Shown one piece after another: positions 41,149 through 61,051 of a stretch of DNA of 64,000 nucleotides. A program made the position numbers and the translations under genes. This DNA comes from Chiloscyllium plagiosum (Eukaryota), in assembly GCF_004010195.1 (NCBI RefSeq), contig NC_057736.1, forward strand, positions 33,635,839 through 33,699,838. Direction: 5' to 3'. Every line of letters begins with the position of its first letter. The stretch's first letter is position 1. The notes below the pieces were generated by a model that saw nothing but the letters and a program-made list of their open reading frames with translations, was not told the origin of the DNA and did no database searches.

Positions 41149-41585
41149 ATATCTATCAACTATCTAATGGTAACACTGTGATATCACAGTGGCTGGAAAC
41201 CTTTAATGAATTTATACGTGGTTAAGTACATTGTTAGTGTAGTGTCTGTAATGAGGTCAGCCAGTTGGACCCTTTTCAAATTCCTTCTAACTCTGTGGAA
41301 ATTCGGCCCTAACAGTTTCTCCAGAGGCTTCATTGTTGATATCCCACTAAACTGAACGGGGCTAACTTTCATAATTACTGTTATCCATCTTCACTGACAC
41401 TGAGAAGCTAAGTTTATATTTAATGAATCGCAAACATTTCCATTATGATCAAAATACCCATAAATTGTATAGATATACTCAGTTTGTTTATTTTTATTTC
41501 AGCATTGCATAAACATAATCATTATAATGCATTACACTGCCTGAAATTTTAAAATAAAAACACAAAATATACATTTCCATTAAAA

Positions 41586-41766
41586 AAATGAGTTCGCTGT
41601 TTGGGTGTATTAATCTGGTCCAATAAGGGACCCCTGGCTGACATATAAAAAAGGGATACTGATACTCTGATAGTTGACTCTGAATGAGGTAGGAGGAAAG
41701 TCAAGGGCTGTTCACATGTAAATACAGGTAGACTTGATGACTGGCTACCAGCTCTGTGCAGTACCA
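41586..41766 (+). mobile_element. Old uninterrupted copy of the small LTR family seen at 56471-57981
   Basis: ATGAGTTC.CTG.TTGGG..TTAATCTGGTCCAAT.AGGGA.CCCTGGCTGACA.ATAAAA...GTCAAGG...ATGTAAATA aligns with the reverse complement of 57876-57945 plus 56480-56590. CCAAT at 41620-41624, TATAAAA at 41644-41650. Confidence 0.7.
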
Positions 41767-44087
41767 CAGGTTCAGTCATTACTGTGTCCATTTTACTTCC
41801 GATTTCTAAACATGCACCACTATCTAACCAAAGTCACAGAGATGGGGCAATAATGAATGGAGATGAGGGGAATGTATAATTTTTCACCTGAAAAGTCAGA
41901 AATTCTCCCAAGTCACCTCTTTCGGGGAATGTTTGCTGTGTTAACTTGTTGGGCAGCAGTAGACATTCCCTGGGATCAGGATCTCAAGGCAAGAGTTCCA
42001 CTCTCCAAGAGCTGCTGGCCGGAAAGTTATTGGCAGCTTTTCATTGCCTAGCAGTGCCACCTGAGAGTCTGCTGGCTATTGCTGGCACTACACCCCCTAA
42101 AGGACAAGGAAGGTCAATAGACCCAGACACAAGTGACTGAAAGTAAGAGGGTGTACCTTCCCTGAAACTGAGTGACATGAGCTAGTTTTAGTAGCAGATG
42201 CAGATAGCACATAAAAGCCATTAATCATGCGATAAATCTTTTGTCAGACATCGTTAGTTGAAATCACCTTTGAATGAGTGACACTCTCCCAAACCCACCC
42301 CATGACCCCGCTGAGGATCCACAAGCAACCACTGTTTTCTGGGCTTGCTTTCTGGGTTCCGTCTGGTTTAATAACTTCAGAAGCTGGATGAGATCTGAAT
42401 GAGGCATTAATTACCCAGGTGAGTGTGTGAAGAGGAAGTCTGACAGAAAGATCTTCAACAGACCTCCATTAACTACTGCCTCATTTCTGTGACTTTGGTT
42501 GGGTAACAGTACGTGTTTGGAAACCTAAAAGAAAAATGGACACACTAATGACTGAATCTGTGGTCTGATGGAAGTTAGCAAACATGGCTTATTGGAAGAG
42601 TAACTGAAACAACTCCACCAGTATCCTGTCATCAAGTCAACCTGTGATTGACTAAAAATAAGGATGGAGGCAGGACAGCAAAGGCTCACAATTCTCCGTG
42701 GGATTGATCATTCCCCATCACCAAATGCGTAACTCAGCAGAGTATTGAATTCTGTCCATACTCTGTCTTCTCGATAGCATTAAATACTGTTCCTGTACTA
42801 AACACCAGGAGGTGTATAAGACCACTACGGATTTGTTCATTCTCTAACACCCATCCAATAGCATAATTAAAGATATTCACTGGGAAAATATAAAGCGCAC
42901 ATAACCTTTAACTCTACTGAGGTTGACAAGTGGAACTTTTATTTGTTTAATTAATTTTAGCACAGACAGAAAAGAATCTTTGCTGTAATAATTTTGACTT
43001 GGTCAGGAATTTGAGGTAAGTAAAAATGCTTTTCCATTATGATTACATCTGAGAGTAGACAGGCTGTTAACATTTGGTGTCAAACTGTAACAAATGAAAA
43101 AAATGGCAGATGAATGTAAGTTTGATCTTATTACATTGCATTTTCCAAATAAATTGACGAATGCAATCTTGTAGTATATAGAACACATAATTCAGTGAGG
43201 AAGATAAAGTATGATAAATTGCTGTCTGCCTCAGTCGGTGTTTTGCACAGCATCGAACAATGTCCATACAATACAATGTGAATACCAATAATACATCTTA
43301 AATGGAAAAAAATCTGCTGTCCTGTTGAACTTAAAGGTTGTTCTAAAAGAAAAGTTAAGAACTATATTTAAGGAAAACTTCTAAAGTTTCAGCAATAGCT
43401 CAAAATTCATATTTCTAGTGTTAAAGGAATGGTTCAATAATTATTTGCTTGGAGCCTATATGATAATTTATTAAATCATACTCTCTGCCCGCTTGTTCAT
43501 AAAGGATATTGAAGGGATAACTGCATTCCTGACAATGATATATCTCTGCAGCAATTTCTTGAGCAAACTGGTTTGCTTCATTATATAGAATTTCTCAGGT
43601 AACTAACTATGCTGAGCTATGTGAAAATAGGTTTGGTAGCAGATGCAGATAGCACATAAAAGCCATTTATTTTGCTATAAATCATTTGTCAGACATTGTT
43701 AGCTGAACTCGCTGAGTGGACCAATGGATTTGCAACCGTATTTTTTTTTTAACTAGTGCTCTGCTGTCACTATATTCTAGCCAAATCATGTCAGATGGAG
43801 TATCTTGAAATTATATGATTTTTATTTTCTTCCCCTATTCCTTCCGCAGCTTTCATACAGACTGCACTCATCTTCTTCTCACTGTTGAACTGGTACAGAA
43901 ATTCATATTTCTCTGCTGTTAATTTGTTCATCTTAGGCAGACATTATCATTCATTAATGATTTTCTTTTGCAATTCTTTCAGCTATCCCCCTTACAAGGC
44001 AAGTAAGCTATTTAGCCACTTCTCATTATGGTACTCTGAGATGCACAAGCATCTGATAAGTTAATGCAATCTTTGTTTTTTTTTCTT

Positions 44088-53227: not shown

Positions 53228-54772
53228 CAGAGATAATGATCTTTCAAGGATCCTTAATTACTGGAAGAGGGCTGGAGTATTGGAAAATTGCCACTGTAAC
53301 ATATTCATTTAAATTGGAAAGGAGACCAAAAGCAGTAACAATAGGCCAGTTAGCTTTGCTTCCAATAATGGGAGATGTTAGAATCAAAAGCTCAAAAGGA
53401 GACATTTAGAAATGCACATCACAAGTCAGCAAACTCAGCATGATTCACGCAGGGGAAGTCATGCTTGAAAAATTTCTTAGAATACTTTGATGAGGTAACA
53501 AGCTGGGTAGATGAAGGGGAAACTGTGGATGTCATATATTTGAATTGTAAGAAGGTATCTGATAAGGTCCCATTTATTAGGCTATTTAATAAGAACCCAA
53601 AGTGTTGGATTATTACATTAGCATGTATAGAAGATTGGTTAACTAGTAGAAGTCAGATTTGGGACCAGGGGATATTTTCAGGATAGCAACTTATGGAGTG
53701 CCAAAACGGATCAGCACTGGGGCCACAACTACTTGCAATACATATTAATGACTCAGATGAGGGAAATTAATATATAATTGTTTGCAGATAACACATAAAT
53801 TAGTGAGAAGACAAATGGCAAATCTGCAGAGGGCAACAGACAGGTTAACTGAATTAGCAAAAATTTGGCAGATAGAATATAACGTGGGAAAATGTGAGCT
53901 TGTGATTTTGGTGGGAGATGAATGTTATCAAAATGGAGAAAGATGTAGGATAGAGGGATTTGTGAATCTGTGCATAAATCACAAAAAACTCCCAAAAAAG
54001 TTCAGCACATTAACAAGAAGGCAAATAAAATGTTGGCCTTTATTTCAAAGGGAATGCTGTCCAAAAATAGGGAGGGCTTCTTAAAACTACATAAGGCATT
54101 AGTTAGATCACACCTGAATGACTACAAACAGTTTTGGTCTCCTTATCTGAGAATAAATATACTAGCATTGGTTGCAGTCCAGAGAAGGTTCACAAGGTTA
54201 ACCCTGAGTATGGAGGGATTGTCTTGAGGAGAGGTTGAATAGGTTGGGCCTGTATTCATTGGCATTTCTAGAATTAGAGGTCATCTTATTGAAACATACA
54301 AGATTCTTGAGGGACTTGATAGGGGAGATGCAGAGAGATTTTATTTCATCTAATATTATCTTGGTTACAATCTCAGAGTAAGGGATCACCCAGTTAGGTC
54401 AGAAATGCAGAATAATTTCTTCTCCCAATTGATATTGAATCTGCAGAGGGCTGAAGAGGGTTGTGTCATCAGGTATTCAAGACTGTGGTAGACAGATTTT
54501 TAATTCGTAAGGGAATCAAGGCTTATGGAAGAATGTCAGGAATTTGGAGTTGAAGATTACCAGATCAACTATGTTAAAAAATCTGATGAAGGAGCGTTGC
54601 TCCGAAAGCTAGTGTGCTTCCAATTAAACCTGTTGGACTATAAATTGGTGTTGTGTGATTTTTAACTTTGTACACCCGAAACATCGGCATCTCCAAATCA
54701 GATCAACTATGATCTCATTGAATGGCACAGCTGACTTTCTGGGCTGAATGGCCTACCACAGCTTATCTTTTA
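53228..54772 (+). mobile_element. Old CR1 LINE 3' half
   Basis: ORFs show VDVIYLN.KK..DKVP, WQIEYNVGKC, ALVRSHL and VQRRFTRL. Confidence 0.85.
54574..54698 (+). mobile_element. Penelope cassette (family C) with intact hammerhead core, 13-bp TSD
   Basis: CAGATCAACTATG at 54561-54573 and 54699-54711. CTGATGA-A-GGAGC-GTT-GCTCC-GAAA-GCTA at 54583-54611. Confidence 0.85.
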
Positions 54773-56006: not shown

Positions 56007-56755
56007 CCAATGTTTCAATATGAATAGAGTGTGGAACCTGATTCAATCTTGAAGAATCATCCAGACTGTGTTCTTCGCAAAGCTACATTTGCAAAAATCC
56101 CAGAGAGAGCTGCCTTTACATACTGACACATGCCAGAACTAATGTCATCTGAACACTCCATACCATACTCCATTTTCCTTCAAGGATTAACCATTGTGAC
56201 TAAAATTGTTTTTACTTAAAAGCAAATCTCTGCAAAGAGGAATATATTTCTGTTTATCTTTTATCTGGCACATGGGTTTGTGCCTATGTTTTTGGTAATT
56301 TGCAGGATGAAAGATTTGTATTGCTACATTGCAAACCAATGTTACAGAACATATTTTGCATCTTTGTGGACTACGTTTTGTTTTACAACAAATGTATAAT
56401 TTTAGGCATTTCAAAGTACTACCATTGATGTAACCATTTGAAAGAAAAGTCTAATATCAAGAAAGCCTACCAAAATAACTCCACAGAGGCCAGTATCCTG
56501 TCACCAAGACACCGTTTATTTACACATGGAGAGTCCTGGACACTGATCCAGCTCCCTCAGAGCCGGCTCTCGGAGTGAACAGGATCTCTGACATGTCTGC
56601 TCTTTTTTTTGCACGAATCTTTATTCACATTTCTACCACCAGGAAGAAAAGAAACAATATGTCTGCTTTTTTTAAATATAATATGTACATCCATTTTCAC
56701 ATTCTACTGGCTTTTTGTCAGCTTTTCCCTCTGGATGTGAAATAATTCCACAGAG

Positions 56756-56844
56756 TTAAAAATCACACAACACCAGGTTATAGTCCAACAGGTTTAATTG
56801 GAAGCACACTAGCTTTTGGAGCGACGCTCCTTCATCAGGTGATG
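56756..56844 (-). mobile_element. Family-C Penelope cassette nested in the transduced LTR piece, 15-bp TSD
   Basis: AATAATTCCACAGAG at 56741-56755 and 56845-56859. cacCTGATGA-A-GGAGC-GTC-GCTCC-aAAA-GCTA-gtg. Confidence 0.85.
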
Positions 56845-57140
56845 AATAATTCCACAGAGGCTGGTATTCCCATCACCACGTCACCCTTTATTTACAAGTG
56901 TATGGTCCGGCTTCCTCAGACCCAGCTCTCAGAGTGTCAGAACATCTGACACTCCTATTTTCTTTTACTTTTTATTTTTATTTTTACCCCCACACTACTG
57001 CCTAACTGCGGTGGTGCTTATTTTTTCCCAGCACCCATGTTGGTGTGTATGCAAATGTGAGACACAGTGAAAGACACAAGGTGCACAAATCTTTATTCAA
57101 ATTTCCACCACCAGGAAGAAAAGAAACAACATGTCTGCTC

Positions 57141-57433
57141 TTTTTTTTCTTTCTTTTTCAGTGAGAGACACAAGGTACACCAATCTTTATTCAATTTCCA
57201 CCACCAGGAAGATAGGAAAACACCAGAGTGGCCAGTGACAAGCAGTGCCCTTCACATCGAAGGGCAATGCTCTGTGATCAAAACAGTGAAGGGGAGGGTA
57301 GGGACTAAATCAAAATAGAGTTGGAGAAATGATGCACTCCACTCCCTGCGGCGGCCACCTCTCCCTGAACAACTCCAGGGTGTTGGTGGACACCGTGTGC
57401 TCCTTCTCCAAGGACACCCGGGCTCGAACATAA
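57141..57433 (-). mobile_element. Tx1-clade (L1 group) LINE 3' end: ORF2 C-terminus, 3' UTR and poly(A)
   Basis: Minus-strand translation from 57432 gives YVRARVSLEKEHTVSTNTLELFRERWPPQGVECII, resembling the Tx1-type C-terminal F..RW...C motif. AATAAA and an A tail follow. Confidence 0.75.
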
Positions 57434-59668
57434 ACATGTCTGCTCTTTTTTTTTCAACTACTCCTGTTCTTTTTTTATATAACCCCTACACTACCGCCTA
57501 ACTGCGGTAGTGCTTATTTTTTTCCCCAGCACCCATGGTGCGTGTGTGCATGTGTGAGACACTGTGAGAACATATGTGCTCTTTTTTTTTCAAGAAACAA
57601 AAATGTATTCTATTTTAAATTTTACATGGTTAAGTTCTCCAATAACAATTAAAACTTAAAAAGATTAGATTCCAAACTTATAATAAATGATTTTCACAGG
57701 ATCAGTGAGGTTGACTAGCCATACTTGAAAAATATCACATTGTGAAAGACTTGCATTTGTTAGGACATTTTGTAAGATGCAACAGGAAAACCAACATTTA
57801 TACAGCACAAGAGGAGAGTGCTGATAAGTTAACATGCATTAGTAGCTACATACATTAGATTAAACATGTGTGCTCTTATCTGTCAGCAAGGGCACTCTGA
57901 CTGGGGCTAGATGAACAACCCCAATTAAGGAACACATATTCTATAAGGTCCACCTTGGTTGACCTTGTTACAATCACTACACTGACAATTTCCATATTGA
58001 GAATCAGATAAAACAATTAACTTTACATTGCGATTGGAAAGCTGTGGGACGAGAGAGAGTTGGTGCACTGTTTCTGTTTGGGAACAGCAAAGGATTTACT
58101 GTAAGGAAGAAATTTCAATGTGACAGACGTGCTTTTAGGAATGAGTGCATTTTGTAAATTTTCAATACAGGTATGGTGAAATACCGATTTTATTTAACAA
58201 ATCTTTATTTTCCTCACTGTGCACAGGTCCTGACATCTGCTGACTTATGGTGGATACGATACTAAATGAGTTGGCATAGGATGTAAAATAGCAAAGGGTA
58301 GGAGGTGTGGAGCATGGCTTAACAGCCACAGGTTGTCTTGAAGATAATGATAGGTTATGGAAAGTGGGTACAGTGGCATAGTTTAACAGGAATGACAGGG
58401 GATCGTGGGGATGTGTGCAGTATGTCTGGTGGCAAAGATGCAAATGGATTGAGCATGGGAAGTGTGCATGGGAGGGAGAAGATGAGAGATTACAACTGTC
58501 TTCAGTTTCATTAGCTGTTTTAAAATTAATTTTCCACACAGTATCCCTTTCTCGTGCCCAGCTTGCATCCAGAGTCAGTATCCTCCACCTTTATTCCAGG
58601 TTTGCACCTCCATCCTATTCATCATCTTACAACAGTGCTGCATGTTACTCCAGATTTTTACCTGAGTAGCTGTGCCTGACAAGTCTTGAATGCCTAGTGC
58701 CATGGTCTCTTTGCCAGCCTTGAGCGAAGAGAATGGGTCTCTTCTCCAACACCCGCCCAATGGGATCTTCAGGTCCCTATCAGTGTAACTTTCCCTCTCT
58801 CAGTCTCATCTCCTTTGGAATTGTGCAGCAACACACTGTTAAGGACAGTTCCTGGTTTGCTGTGTTCAAAATGGTTTTACTAAGACACTCAGGGTAAATA
58901 CCAGAAAGGCCCATCTTCCTCTGTTCTGCCTATGCTGAGCACAATACTGTGCAGGAATGTTGCCATGGAGATTTAGCATACATAATGAGGTGAATAGCAG
59001 TAAATCACATGAAACAAGTTATCGGATTTATGTAGCAAAACCCTCCATGTAACTCCCTGAAACTGACATTGGTCAAATTAAAGGAAGATTCAGCCCATTA
59101 TCCCTCTATTACTATTCTTTACTTCCGAGACAAACTAAAATTACATTCCAAAGACCTTTTCATTTTTCCATGGCTAAAAGCCAGTCCCAATTCACAAAAA
59201 CTTTCTCAAGCCAATTTTAATTGAAAACCGAAGACACAGTAATGCAAGCAAAATTAAACATCCAAACGAAATGGTAAAATACTGATCAATATCTTCTCAC
59301 AGCTTCAGTGTCACCTTCTAACACTTTAAACAATTTTGTAAAAAAAAAACAAAATTTTTTAAGCAGGTGGCCATTCCTTTTTAAGACAAATGGATGCTAA
59401 ACTTAATGTTAAACACCACTCAAAGTATTATTACATTTAAAACAGCTATGAGGCAATTCTGGCAGCTGACCTATGTGGAACACAGAGACAAGATGCTTTG
59501 ATTTTTGCTGAGTCCACCCCATTTATAGGCAATTGGAAGCTTCCAATTTTTTTTTATTAAGGACAGCAAATTTGTCACAACATGAAATTTAATTAACTGA
59601 TTACTCAACATTAATAAATTGGGTTTTGCATTAATGCAGATACTCCGGAACTTGGGAAACTATATCCA

Positions 59669-59874
59669 CGATGGGTGAATACAATGGTATTGGGAGAGCA
59701 CTCCCACGTCTCCTACTTCCACACAAATGATCTTTGATAAGAGAATTCCTGATTCCTGTTTCAGTTATACCTTGTGATTTTTACAATCTTGATTGAGCAA
59801 ACCTGGAAGTCCTAGGCTCAAATTCAGGCAGGATTTGGGCCTAGTCACTGCTTACTTTGTGTTTTGAGCTAATA
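59669..59874 (+). repeat. Direct repeat, copy 1 (~207 bp)
   Basis: Aligns end to end with 60842-61051 at high identity by eye. Confidence 0.9.
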
Positions 59875-60841: not shown

Positions 60842-61051
60842 CGATGGGTGAATACTGTGGTGTTAGGAGAACACTCCCACTTCTCCTGCTTCCACACAAA
60901 TGATGTCTGAGAAGAGAACTCCTGATTCCTATTTGTTATTCCTCGTGATTTTTTAAAATCTTGATTGAGCAAACAGCCTGTAGAAGTCCTAGGTTCAAAT
61001 TCAGGCAGGATTTGGGCCTATTCACTGCTTACTTTGTGTTTTGAACTAATA
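60842..61051 (+). repeat. Direct repeat, copy 2
   Basis: Aligns with 59669-59874. Confidence 0.9.

Follow-up and report, generated by a model that had tools for sequence, protein, structure and literature searches.

A stack of LINE inserts at one site in an LTR copy, including a spacer that may be a 3′ transduction carrying its own LTR target

3′ transduction by L1 elements, in both partnered and orphan forms, is described by Hancks and Kazazian (2016, PMC4859970), together with internal priming on A-rich runs. For LINEs that insert at specific sites, the account of crocodilian Tx1 families by Kojima (2015, PMC4494074) reports that Tx1-8_Crp and Tx1-4_AMi prefer LTR retrotransposons and that SINEU-3/Tx1-Mar prefers another transposon. 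It counts a Tx1 family as target-specific when >20% of its copies are flanked by target sequence, and it gives the site within the LTR in supplementary figures. 3′ transduction has also been reported for the target-specific elements R7Ag and R1Bm (as cited in PMC7265360), and annealing-type joining of the 5′ end has been described for fish and human LINEs (PMC4245944). In the text covered by our literature search, with most subscription journals and Repbase Reports outside its scope, we found no paper on a Tx1-type 3′ transduction that carries its own LTR target, or on Tx1 targeting in sharks.

Here we analyse a 64-kb stretch of DNA (the window) containing an LTR-like copy, A (about 56471-57987, minus strand), that is split by a stack of inserts. 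All features of the stack lie on the minus strand. The half of A downstream of the insertion site is at 56471-56590 and the upstream half at 57876-57987, and between them a 12-nt target repeat occurs six times within 1.3 kb (R1 to R6, starting at 56591, 56657, 57129, 57434, 57570 and 57864; three of the six are exact). Across the whole 64-kb window, the same repeat has 12 matches with up to two mismatches, versus 6.7 expected. The 12-mer is followed by T runs of 8 at R1 (56591-56610), 5 at R2 (56657-56673), 8 at R3 (57129-57159, including the tail of spacer 3), 9 at R4 (57434-57454) and 9 at R5 (57570-57590). R6 (57864-57875) is the empty site: it has two T, runs on into the other LTR half, and is the sole copy with the original T-T/A step. 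Together, R1 to R6 and their T runs are the signature of successive target-primed insertions on the minus strand that each duplicated 12-14 nt, and we number the inserts spacers 1 to 5. The plus-strand base before R2 to R6 (positions 56656, 57128, 57433, 57569 and 57863) is an A, the original flank before R1 being G; this A is possibly an untemplated base from the cDNA end. Further along the window is a direct repeat with two copies (59669-59874 and 60842-61051) that are 87-96% identical and about 1175 nt apart.

We compared the window, at 80% likeness, with the public contigs of four of the 24 runs listed; X1 and X2 come from one sample of organism A, and X9 and X13 from two studies of organism B. 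No RNA run was listed as containing the sequence. Organism A is possibly the source of the window sequence, and organism B is a relative that differs from the window's flanks at 10 of 208 and 13 of 238 letters. All contig evidence below is drawn from the rows listed, i.e., 40 of 208 other-letter rows, 12 of 800 between-letter rows, 15 of 1036 joints, 24 of 4266 loose ends and 32 of 282,322 pieces.

The host LTR belongs to a high-copy family, of which copy C (41223-41765, minus strand) is also in the window. The downstream half of A matches C at 41652-41762, and the upstream half matches it at 41585-41648 and 41223-41271. The family has a sharp boundary at the TG at 56473, before which 1259-1353 contigs per run carry unrelated sequence. 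Some traits of a solo LTR can be seen (the TG at the boundary, a TATA-like run in copy C, and AATAAA at 56515 in A and 56887 in B), and the terminus has decayed in A. In the window sequence we saw no target-site duplication (TSD) around A and no internal region of an LTR retroelement. Read in the LINE sense, A contains AATAAA at 56515-56520. In copy C the insertion site is empty and reads as a TATA-like run at 41644-41651, so the LINE's preference for the LTR site is not absolute. Copy C also carries an insert of roughly 310 nt (41271-41586), about 60 nt from the empty site and with a T run at one end, and a fourth member of the family is present as a short fragment at 42607-42652.

Spacer 3 (57160-57433) combines the last 40 codons of an ORF (57313-57432) with a UTR that ends 26 nt after an AATAAA. 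Its protein matches identify these codons as the end of ORF2 of a non-LTR retrotransposon. In a set of 1.84 billion proteins, the peptide matches three at their C termini (E from 5e-8 to 3e-5), and it is 69% identical to the C terminus of P0004, a protein that has zf-RVT at E=1.5e-5 and 26 bits, just under the curated cut-off of 27.5. The neighbours of P0004 in the protein atlas are chordate zf-RVT clusters, whose members are without informative names. Searched alone, the 40-residue peptide matched neither a Pfam family nor a homolog in the word index and had no informative atlas match, and for P0004 we found no longer or full-length relative and no solved structure. The array has features of L1/Tx1-type elements (an ORF2 end with a cysteine-rich zinc knuckle, a 3′ UTR, poly(A) and a TSD of 10-20 nt), and the reverse-transcriptase and endonuclease part of the LINE is absent from the 64-kb window. 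The clade is putatively Tx1, a label suggested by the C-terminal motif. Patterns of the LINE tail had no match in metagenome contigs or viral contigs. Spacers 1 and 3 end 9 and 26 nt, respectively, after an internal AATAAA, which shows that more than one 3′ end is in use within the family. The 3′ end of spacer 3 (57159-57168) and the 5′ end of spacer 4 (57560-57569) overlap by about 8-10 nt in family coordinates.

Spacer 5 (57591-57863) is a copy of a non-LINE locus, and the contigs of both organisms bear on its history. In organism A, one X1 contig (record 7) matches 57591-57742 behind 3445 other letters, which is a second copy with another left flank. In organism B, the same sequence is single-copy, occurring in one contig with 667 other letters before it and 18 after (records 15 and 31), and it is joined to neither R5 nor R6; the contig of organism B that carries R6 and the right flank (records 16 and 32) has 15 letters before R6 that differ from spacer 5. 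In organism A, the depth of this two-copy spacer relative to the flanking sequence is 1.8-2.7 in five of six bin values and 0.84 in the sixth. Spacer 5 was copied from a single-copy locus in the lineage of organism A, with a tail and a duplication, and the orthologous array of the relative lacks it. In one X2 contig (record 24, depth 4.4), R6 is joined to the other version of spacer 5; we read this contig as a putative assembly chimera. In both samples of organism B, the source contig stops 18 letters upstream, perhaps on reaching a repeat, and positions 57764-57824 of spacer 5 are a short piece of moderately repeated sequence (summed depth 760-1820). Spacer 5 is possibly an orphan transduction.

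Because spacer 5 is a tailed copy, the array does take in non-LINE genomic sequence. Spacer 5 is the youngest insert, R5 and R6 have one base in common that R1 to R4 lack, and the T-T/A step is found only at R6, so the stack grows at its R6 end. This order of insertion is established for spacer 5, and the order of the other spacers would follow the same direction.

In the LINE sense, spacer 2 runs from a 5′-truncated LINE 3′ UTR (56986-57128) through an old, degenerate A-rich tail (56957-56985, 23 of 29 plus-strand letters being T), the downstream half of a further LTR copy, B (56738-56960), and about 60 nt of low-copy flank (the tag, 56674-56737), to the 12-nt target repeat. The outer end of the LTR B piece, and hence the length of the flank, is uncertain by about 8 nt. 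The UTR matches those of spacers 3 and 4 (90% identity over 62 nt and 86% over 87 nt, respectively). A previous sequence-only reading had named these pieces along with a terminal T run, and all of them are present. It had proposed that spacer 2 is a 3′ transduction, i.e., that RNA from a donor LINE read through into its own insertion site in LTR copy B and was then inserted here. We think this moderately probable: several features of a partnered transduction are present (a LINE 3′ end, an inner A tract and non-LINE sequence, with the donor's target inside and a TSD around the whole), and the layout is the published one for L1 (PMC4859970). Spacer 2 also begins at precisely the nick that the other four inserts share. 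The duplication around it is R2/R3 (10 of 12 identical), and this extends to 64 nt by way of spacer 1.

The LTR piece in spacer 2 was said to come from a different copy cut at the homologous position, and this holds. B aligns to the left half of A with 91 matches, 25 substitutions and 20 gap columns (78% ungapped identity; E=1e-13 in a within-window search). The other pairs have ungapped identities of 74% (B and C) and 71% (A and C). An identity of only 78% is what separates old copies of the family, so B is not a local duplicate of A; duplication of the host LTR was rejected for this reason and for the different flank. The B junction is in ungapped register with the host target site, within the uncertainty of the T run, and A, B and spacer 4 share one register when read ungapped from a common upstream motif. 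An independent insertion of a whole LTR would have brought both halves of B. We looked for the second (right) half with the within-window search, found none in the array, and rejected this possibility. The flank is unlike the host LTR's own flank (54% identity), and nothing else in the 64 kb matches it convincingly (best E=0.05). That it is LTR-internal sequence was rejected because its depth is low.

Nested inside LTR B is a short cassette with a hammerhead-like core (56756-56844, minus strand), between identical 15-nt duplications (56741-56755 and 56845-56859). It lies in the sense of the LINE RNA with its core altered, and a second copy is at 54583-54671, to which it is 95% identical (over 54583-54665); summed contig depth of the cassette is above 3 million. 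Rfam gave no match (three chance matches fell below their gathering scores), and the cassette is putatively Penelope-like, a label taken from its motif. Folding z-scores were -2.1 for the cassette and -0.7 for its sibling, and such a z is no test of a ribozyme. Minimal hammerheads are typical of Penelope-like elements (PMC6155905). Clues to age are available (95% identity to the sibling and a perfect TSD for the cassette, and 92% identity for the duplicate in spacers 1 and 2), and they leave the relative order unranked.

The new poly(A) tail proposed for spacer 2 is harder to defend. A T run is present, but it is only 7 T long (56667-56673) and overlaps the target repeat, leaving just 3-4 T unexplained by the target, which makes it the shortest of the five tails. 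We checked for poly(A) signals using 13 hexamer variants. None of the 13 occurs 5-35 nt before the new tail of spacer 2, whereas spacers 1, 3, 4 and 5 each have one. A signal of this kind is usual in transduced sequence without being required, since priming on internal A-rich runs has been described. The spacer 2 RNA would furthermore have passed four AATAAA motifs (at 57092, 56977, 56971 and, in LTR B, 56887). These points count against transduction, and they favour an alternative without any RNA, in which a break, possibly the LINE's own nick, was repaired by copying another LTR-plus-LINE locus. Entry would have been through homology to the UTR piece of spacer 1 and exit through T/A microhomology, and the donor locus would still have had its LINE at this LTR position. 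Vertebrate genomes are known to contain duplications that arose through repair (Pace et al. 2009, PMC2671141). In that study, 824 of 1,136 donors were within 5 kb and an A/T tract of at least 5 was found in 0 of the 39 proximal cases examined, whereas for spacer 2 the 64-kb window contains no other copy of the flank, which stops in a T run right at the nick. We consider this DNA-level copying unlikely, though it is the most serious of the rivals.

The 5′ end of spacer 2 bears on the same choice. Spacer 1 (56611-56656) is a 46-nt piece of LINE UTR that is identical to 57083-57128, within spacer 2, at 43 of 46 positions. More broadly, 56610-56673 is a 92% copy of 57082-57145, i.e., a 64-nt duplication, and the 5′ truncation falls on one and the same base in both spacers. 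The chance of such a coincidence of two among four independent truncations is 1-4%. The letters that spacers 1 and 2 have in common, as opposed to spacer 3, are also in four X1 contigs that run on into the LINE (joint 57123->57218). Because contigs continuing into the LINE have the same variant, it is a feature of the subfamily, and we rejected it as proof of copying. The shared truncation points to homology-guided joining or to DNA-level copying: with transduction it needs an extra step, while the in-register fusion with spacer 1 and the 64-nt duplication fit copying at the DNA level equally well. The simplest account would be annealing of the spacer 2 cDNA to the older spacer 1 beside the nick, followed by copying of spacer 1. 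The reverse order is possible, with spacer 1 copied from RNA of this locus.

A transduction should have a donor, and the sequence-only reading had taken the flank to be a unique tag for finding it. The flank has no second copy in the window. Among the 32 of 282,322 contig pieces listed, none places the tag in another context and none is a donor contig. Relative to flanking single-copy sequence, the flank's depth is 1.0-1.1 in organism A (1.02 and 1.13), below most values for the two-copy spacer 5, and it is about threefold in organism B (2.84 and 3.46), contig depth being a rough measure. The repeat bin beside the flank is 25-54 times as deep as the flanking single-copy sequence and is similar in both organisms, so spill-over from it is no obvious cause of the difference. 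Flank depth counts against a visible donor in organism A and allows extra flank copies in organism B. Contigs are broken at 56955-56995, so missing joints there are uninformative. One X1 contig (depth 18) spans the junction of B, tail and UTR (56954-56998) with two other letters and stops short of the tag; it looks like a paralog, either donor-related or independent. At the same junction, X13 has the window's letters at a depth of 37.1, about twice its single-copy depth.

A depth of about one copy in organism A, along with the in-register UTR fusion, would suit a rearrangement in place, in which neighbouring LTR-plus-LINE loci underwent unequal crossing-over followed by a deletion, leaving a single-copy flank in its original position. 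Against this, R3 to R6 and a right LTR half of type A are on the far side of B, a deletion would need to have stopped right at the nick, and no remainder of locus B is in the window. We regard such a rearrangement as very improbable.

Sequence joints at other loci were more productive. Contigs join the left half of the LTR to the LINE UTR at 56578->57057 (X1 and X2) and at 56561->57057 (X9 and X13), among the 15 of 1036 joints listed. A set of X13 contigs has two LINE pieces with an 8-nt target-like piece and 8 T between them, the 8-nt piece matching A at 6 of 8 positions, B at 5 of 8 and spacer 4 at 6 of 8. The LTR-LINE joints at other loci were each seen singly, in a listing that covered 15 of the 1036 joints and 24 of the 4266 loose ends. 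These paralogous contigs bear out the earlier suggestion that the LINE is at the same LTR site elsewhere, and targeting of the site at other loci is supported.

The joints also weigh on another way to explain the missing donor: that reverse transcriptase copied an RNA of LTR B and its flank, then jumped at the LTR's A-run to the poly(A) tail of a LINE. The junction would be homologous merely because the A-run is there, and no LINE would ever have been in LTR B. Spacer 5 indicates that non-LINE RNA can enter the array, both chimeric retrocopies and template jumps have been described (PMC4859970, PMC4494074), and no donor is among the contigs listed. But a jump of this kind needs the chance capture of an RNA from the very LTR family that is targeted, an RNA driven by the LTR would presumably start downstream of the TATA-like run, and LTR-LINE joints do exist at other loci. 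We judge a template switch improbable. Transduction from a LINE in LTR B remains our preferred reading: the insert starts at the common nick, B is a distinct copy present as one half and in register, the array captures non-LINE sequence, and the LTR-LINE joints are found elsewhere. That a LINE was at this LTR site at another locus holds for both transduction and DNA-level copying, so it is more secure than transduction itself.

Spacer 4 (57455-57569) had been put forward as a second case, based on a 10-mer between two T runs. The layout is as described: a LINE 3′ end, an inner 7-T tail (57470-57476), an LTR-target-like 10-mer (57460-57469, matching B at 8 of 10 positions and A at 6 of 10) and then the outer T run. 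However, the match is only 10 nt long, and the five bases between it and the outer run (57455-57459) have no LTR match. The first 7 bases of the 10-mer match B at 6 of 7, which is equalled in register by 1 of 77 other T runs in the window, so the chance of such a match is about 1% (0.65% from base frequencies), as a post hoc test. A TATAAA that arose at the old tail and lies 18 nt ahead of the outer one favours read-through. Spacer 4 is probably a 15-nt read-through like that in spacer 2, and we offer it as a suggestive candidate.

Putting these pieces together, the array could have formed as follows. A poly(A)-tailed LINE of the Tx1/L1 type would nick members of a short LTR family at their TATA-like A-run, on the T-rich strand, rebuilding the site as a 12-14 nt duplication, so that inserts stack with new ones at the R6 side. 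A source copy at the same site in LTR B would have given an RNA that ran through its tail, the downstream half of the LTR and about 60 nt of flank. Reverse transcription would have started at the R2 nick, with a very short tail or an A-run within the RNA as the priming site, and the cDNA end would have annealed to the older UTR piece of spacer 1, copying both it and the target repeat. Annealing to spacer 1 would explain the shared truncation point and the 64-nt duplication. The hammerhead-like cassette may have come later. For spacer 2, then, we infer the RNA intermediate, the donor, the 5′ annealing and the late arrival of the cassette.

If this reading is true, 3′ transduction extends to an LTR-targeting LINE in a shark-like genome, unique tags could link offspring to source copies (as for human L1), and one, possibly two, further insertions at the same LTR site have been added. 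Spacer 5 and the relative's locus fix the direction in which the stack grows. No principle is changed by the reading of spacer 2. A broader idea, which we hold as speculative, is that such LTR sites are polarised recorders: inserts regenerate the site at one end, read-through RNAs bring tagged copies of the target, and each new insert anneals by its 5′ end to the spacer before it. Were it true, the lineages of source elements and of captured germ-line RNAs could be read from an array in dated order, and read-through and self-homology would help to maintain targeting.

Spacer 2 can be compared with the described systems on several points. Like L1 3′ transductions (PMC4859970), it has two A tracts (the outer one only putatively a new tail), the donor's 3′ target inside, non-LINE flank and a target duplication. 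Unlike the L1 cases, it carries the LINE's preferred target (the LTR half) and lands in the same site of another copy, and its proposed new tail is minimal. SDSA duplications (Pace et al. 2009, PMC2671141) also place a short stretch of copied sequence within a transposon, one junction showing homology, but their donors are mostly within 5 kb and have no A/T tract, while spacer 2 has no copy of its flank in 64 kb and does have a T run. In R7Ag and R1Bm, transcripts extend into the downstream target and this part is sometimes copied with them, especially when the poly(A) is short (PMC7265360), a behaviour that resembles spacer 2. Those are R1-clade insect elements in rDNA, with the behaviour shown in assays, whereas spacer 2 is a genomic relic in an LTR, with several hundred nt carried. 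The crocodilian Tx1 families (PMC4494074) are like the array in their preference for LTRs and in having tandem inserts separated by TSDs. They differ in that the host here is not crocodilian and in that, within the portion of the account relevant to this comparison, no 3′ transduction is reported (the word occurs once, as 5′-transduction). LTR-targeting Tx1 families, TSD-separated stacks and read-through copying by target-specific LINEs have each been published, and spacer 2 is probably known behaviour in a new element.
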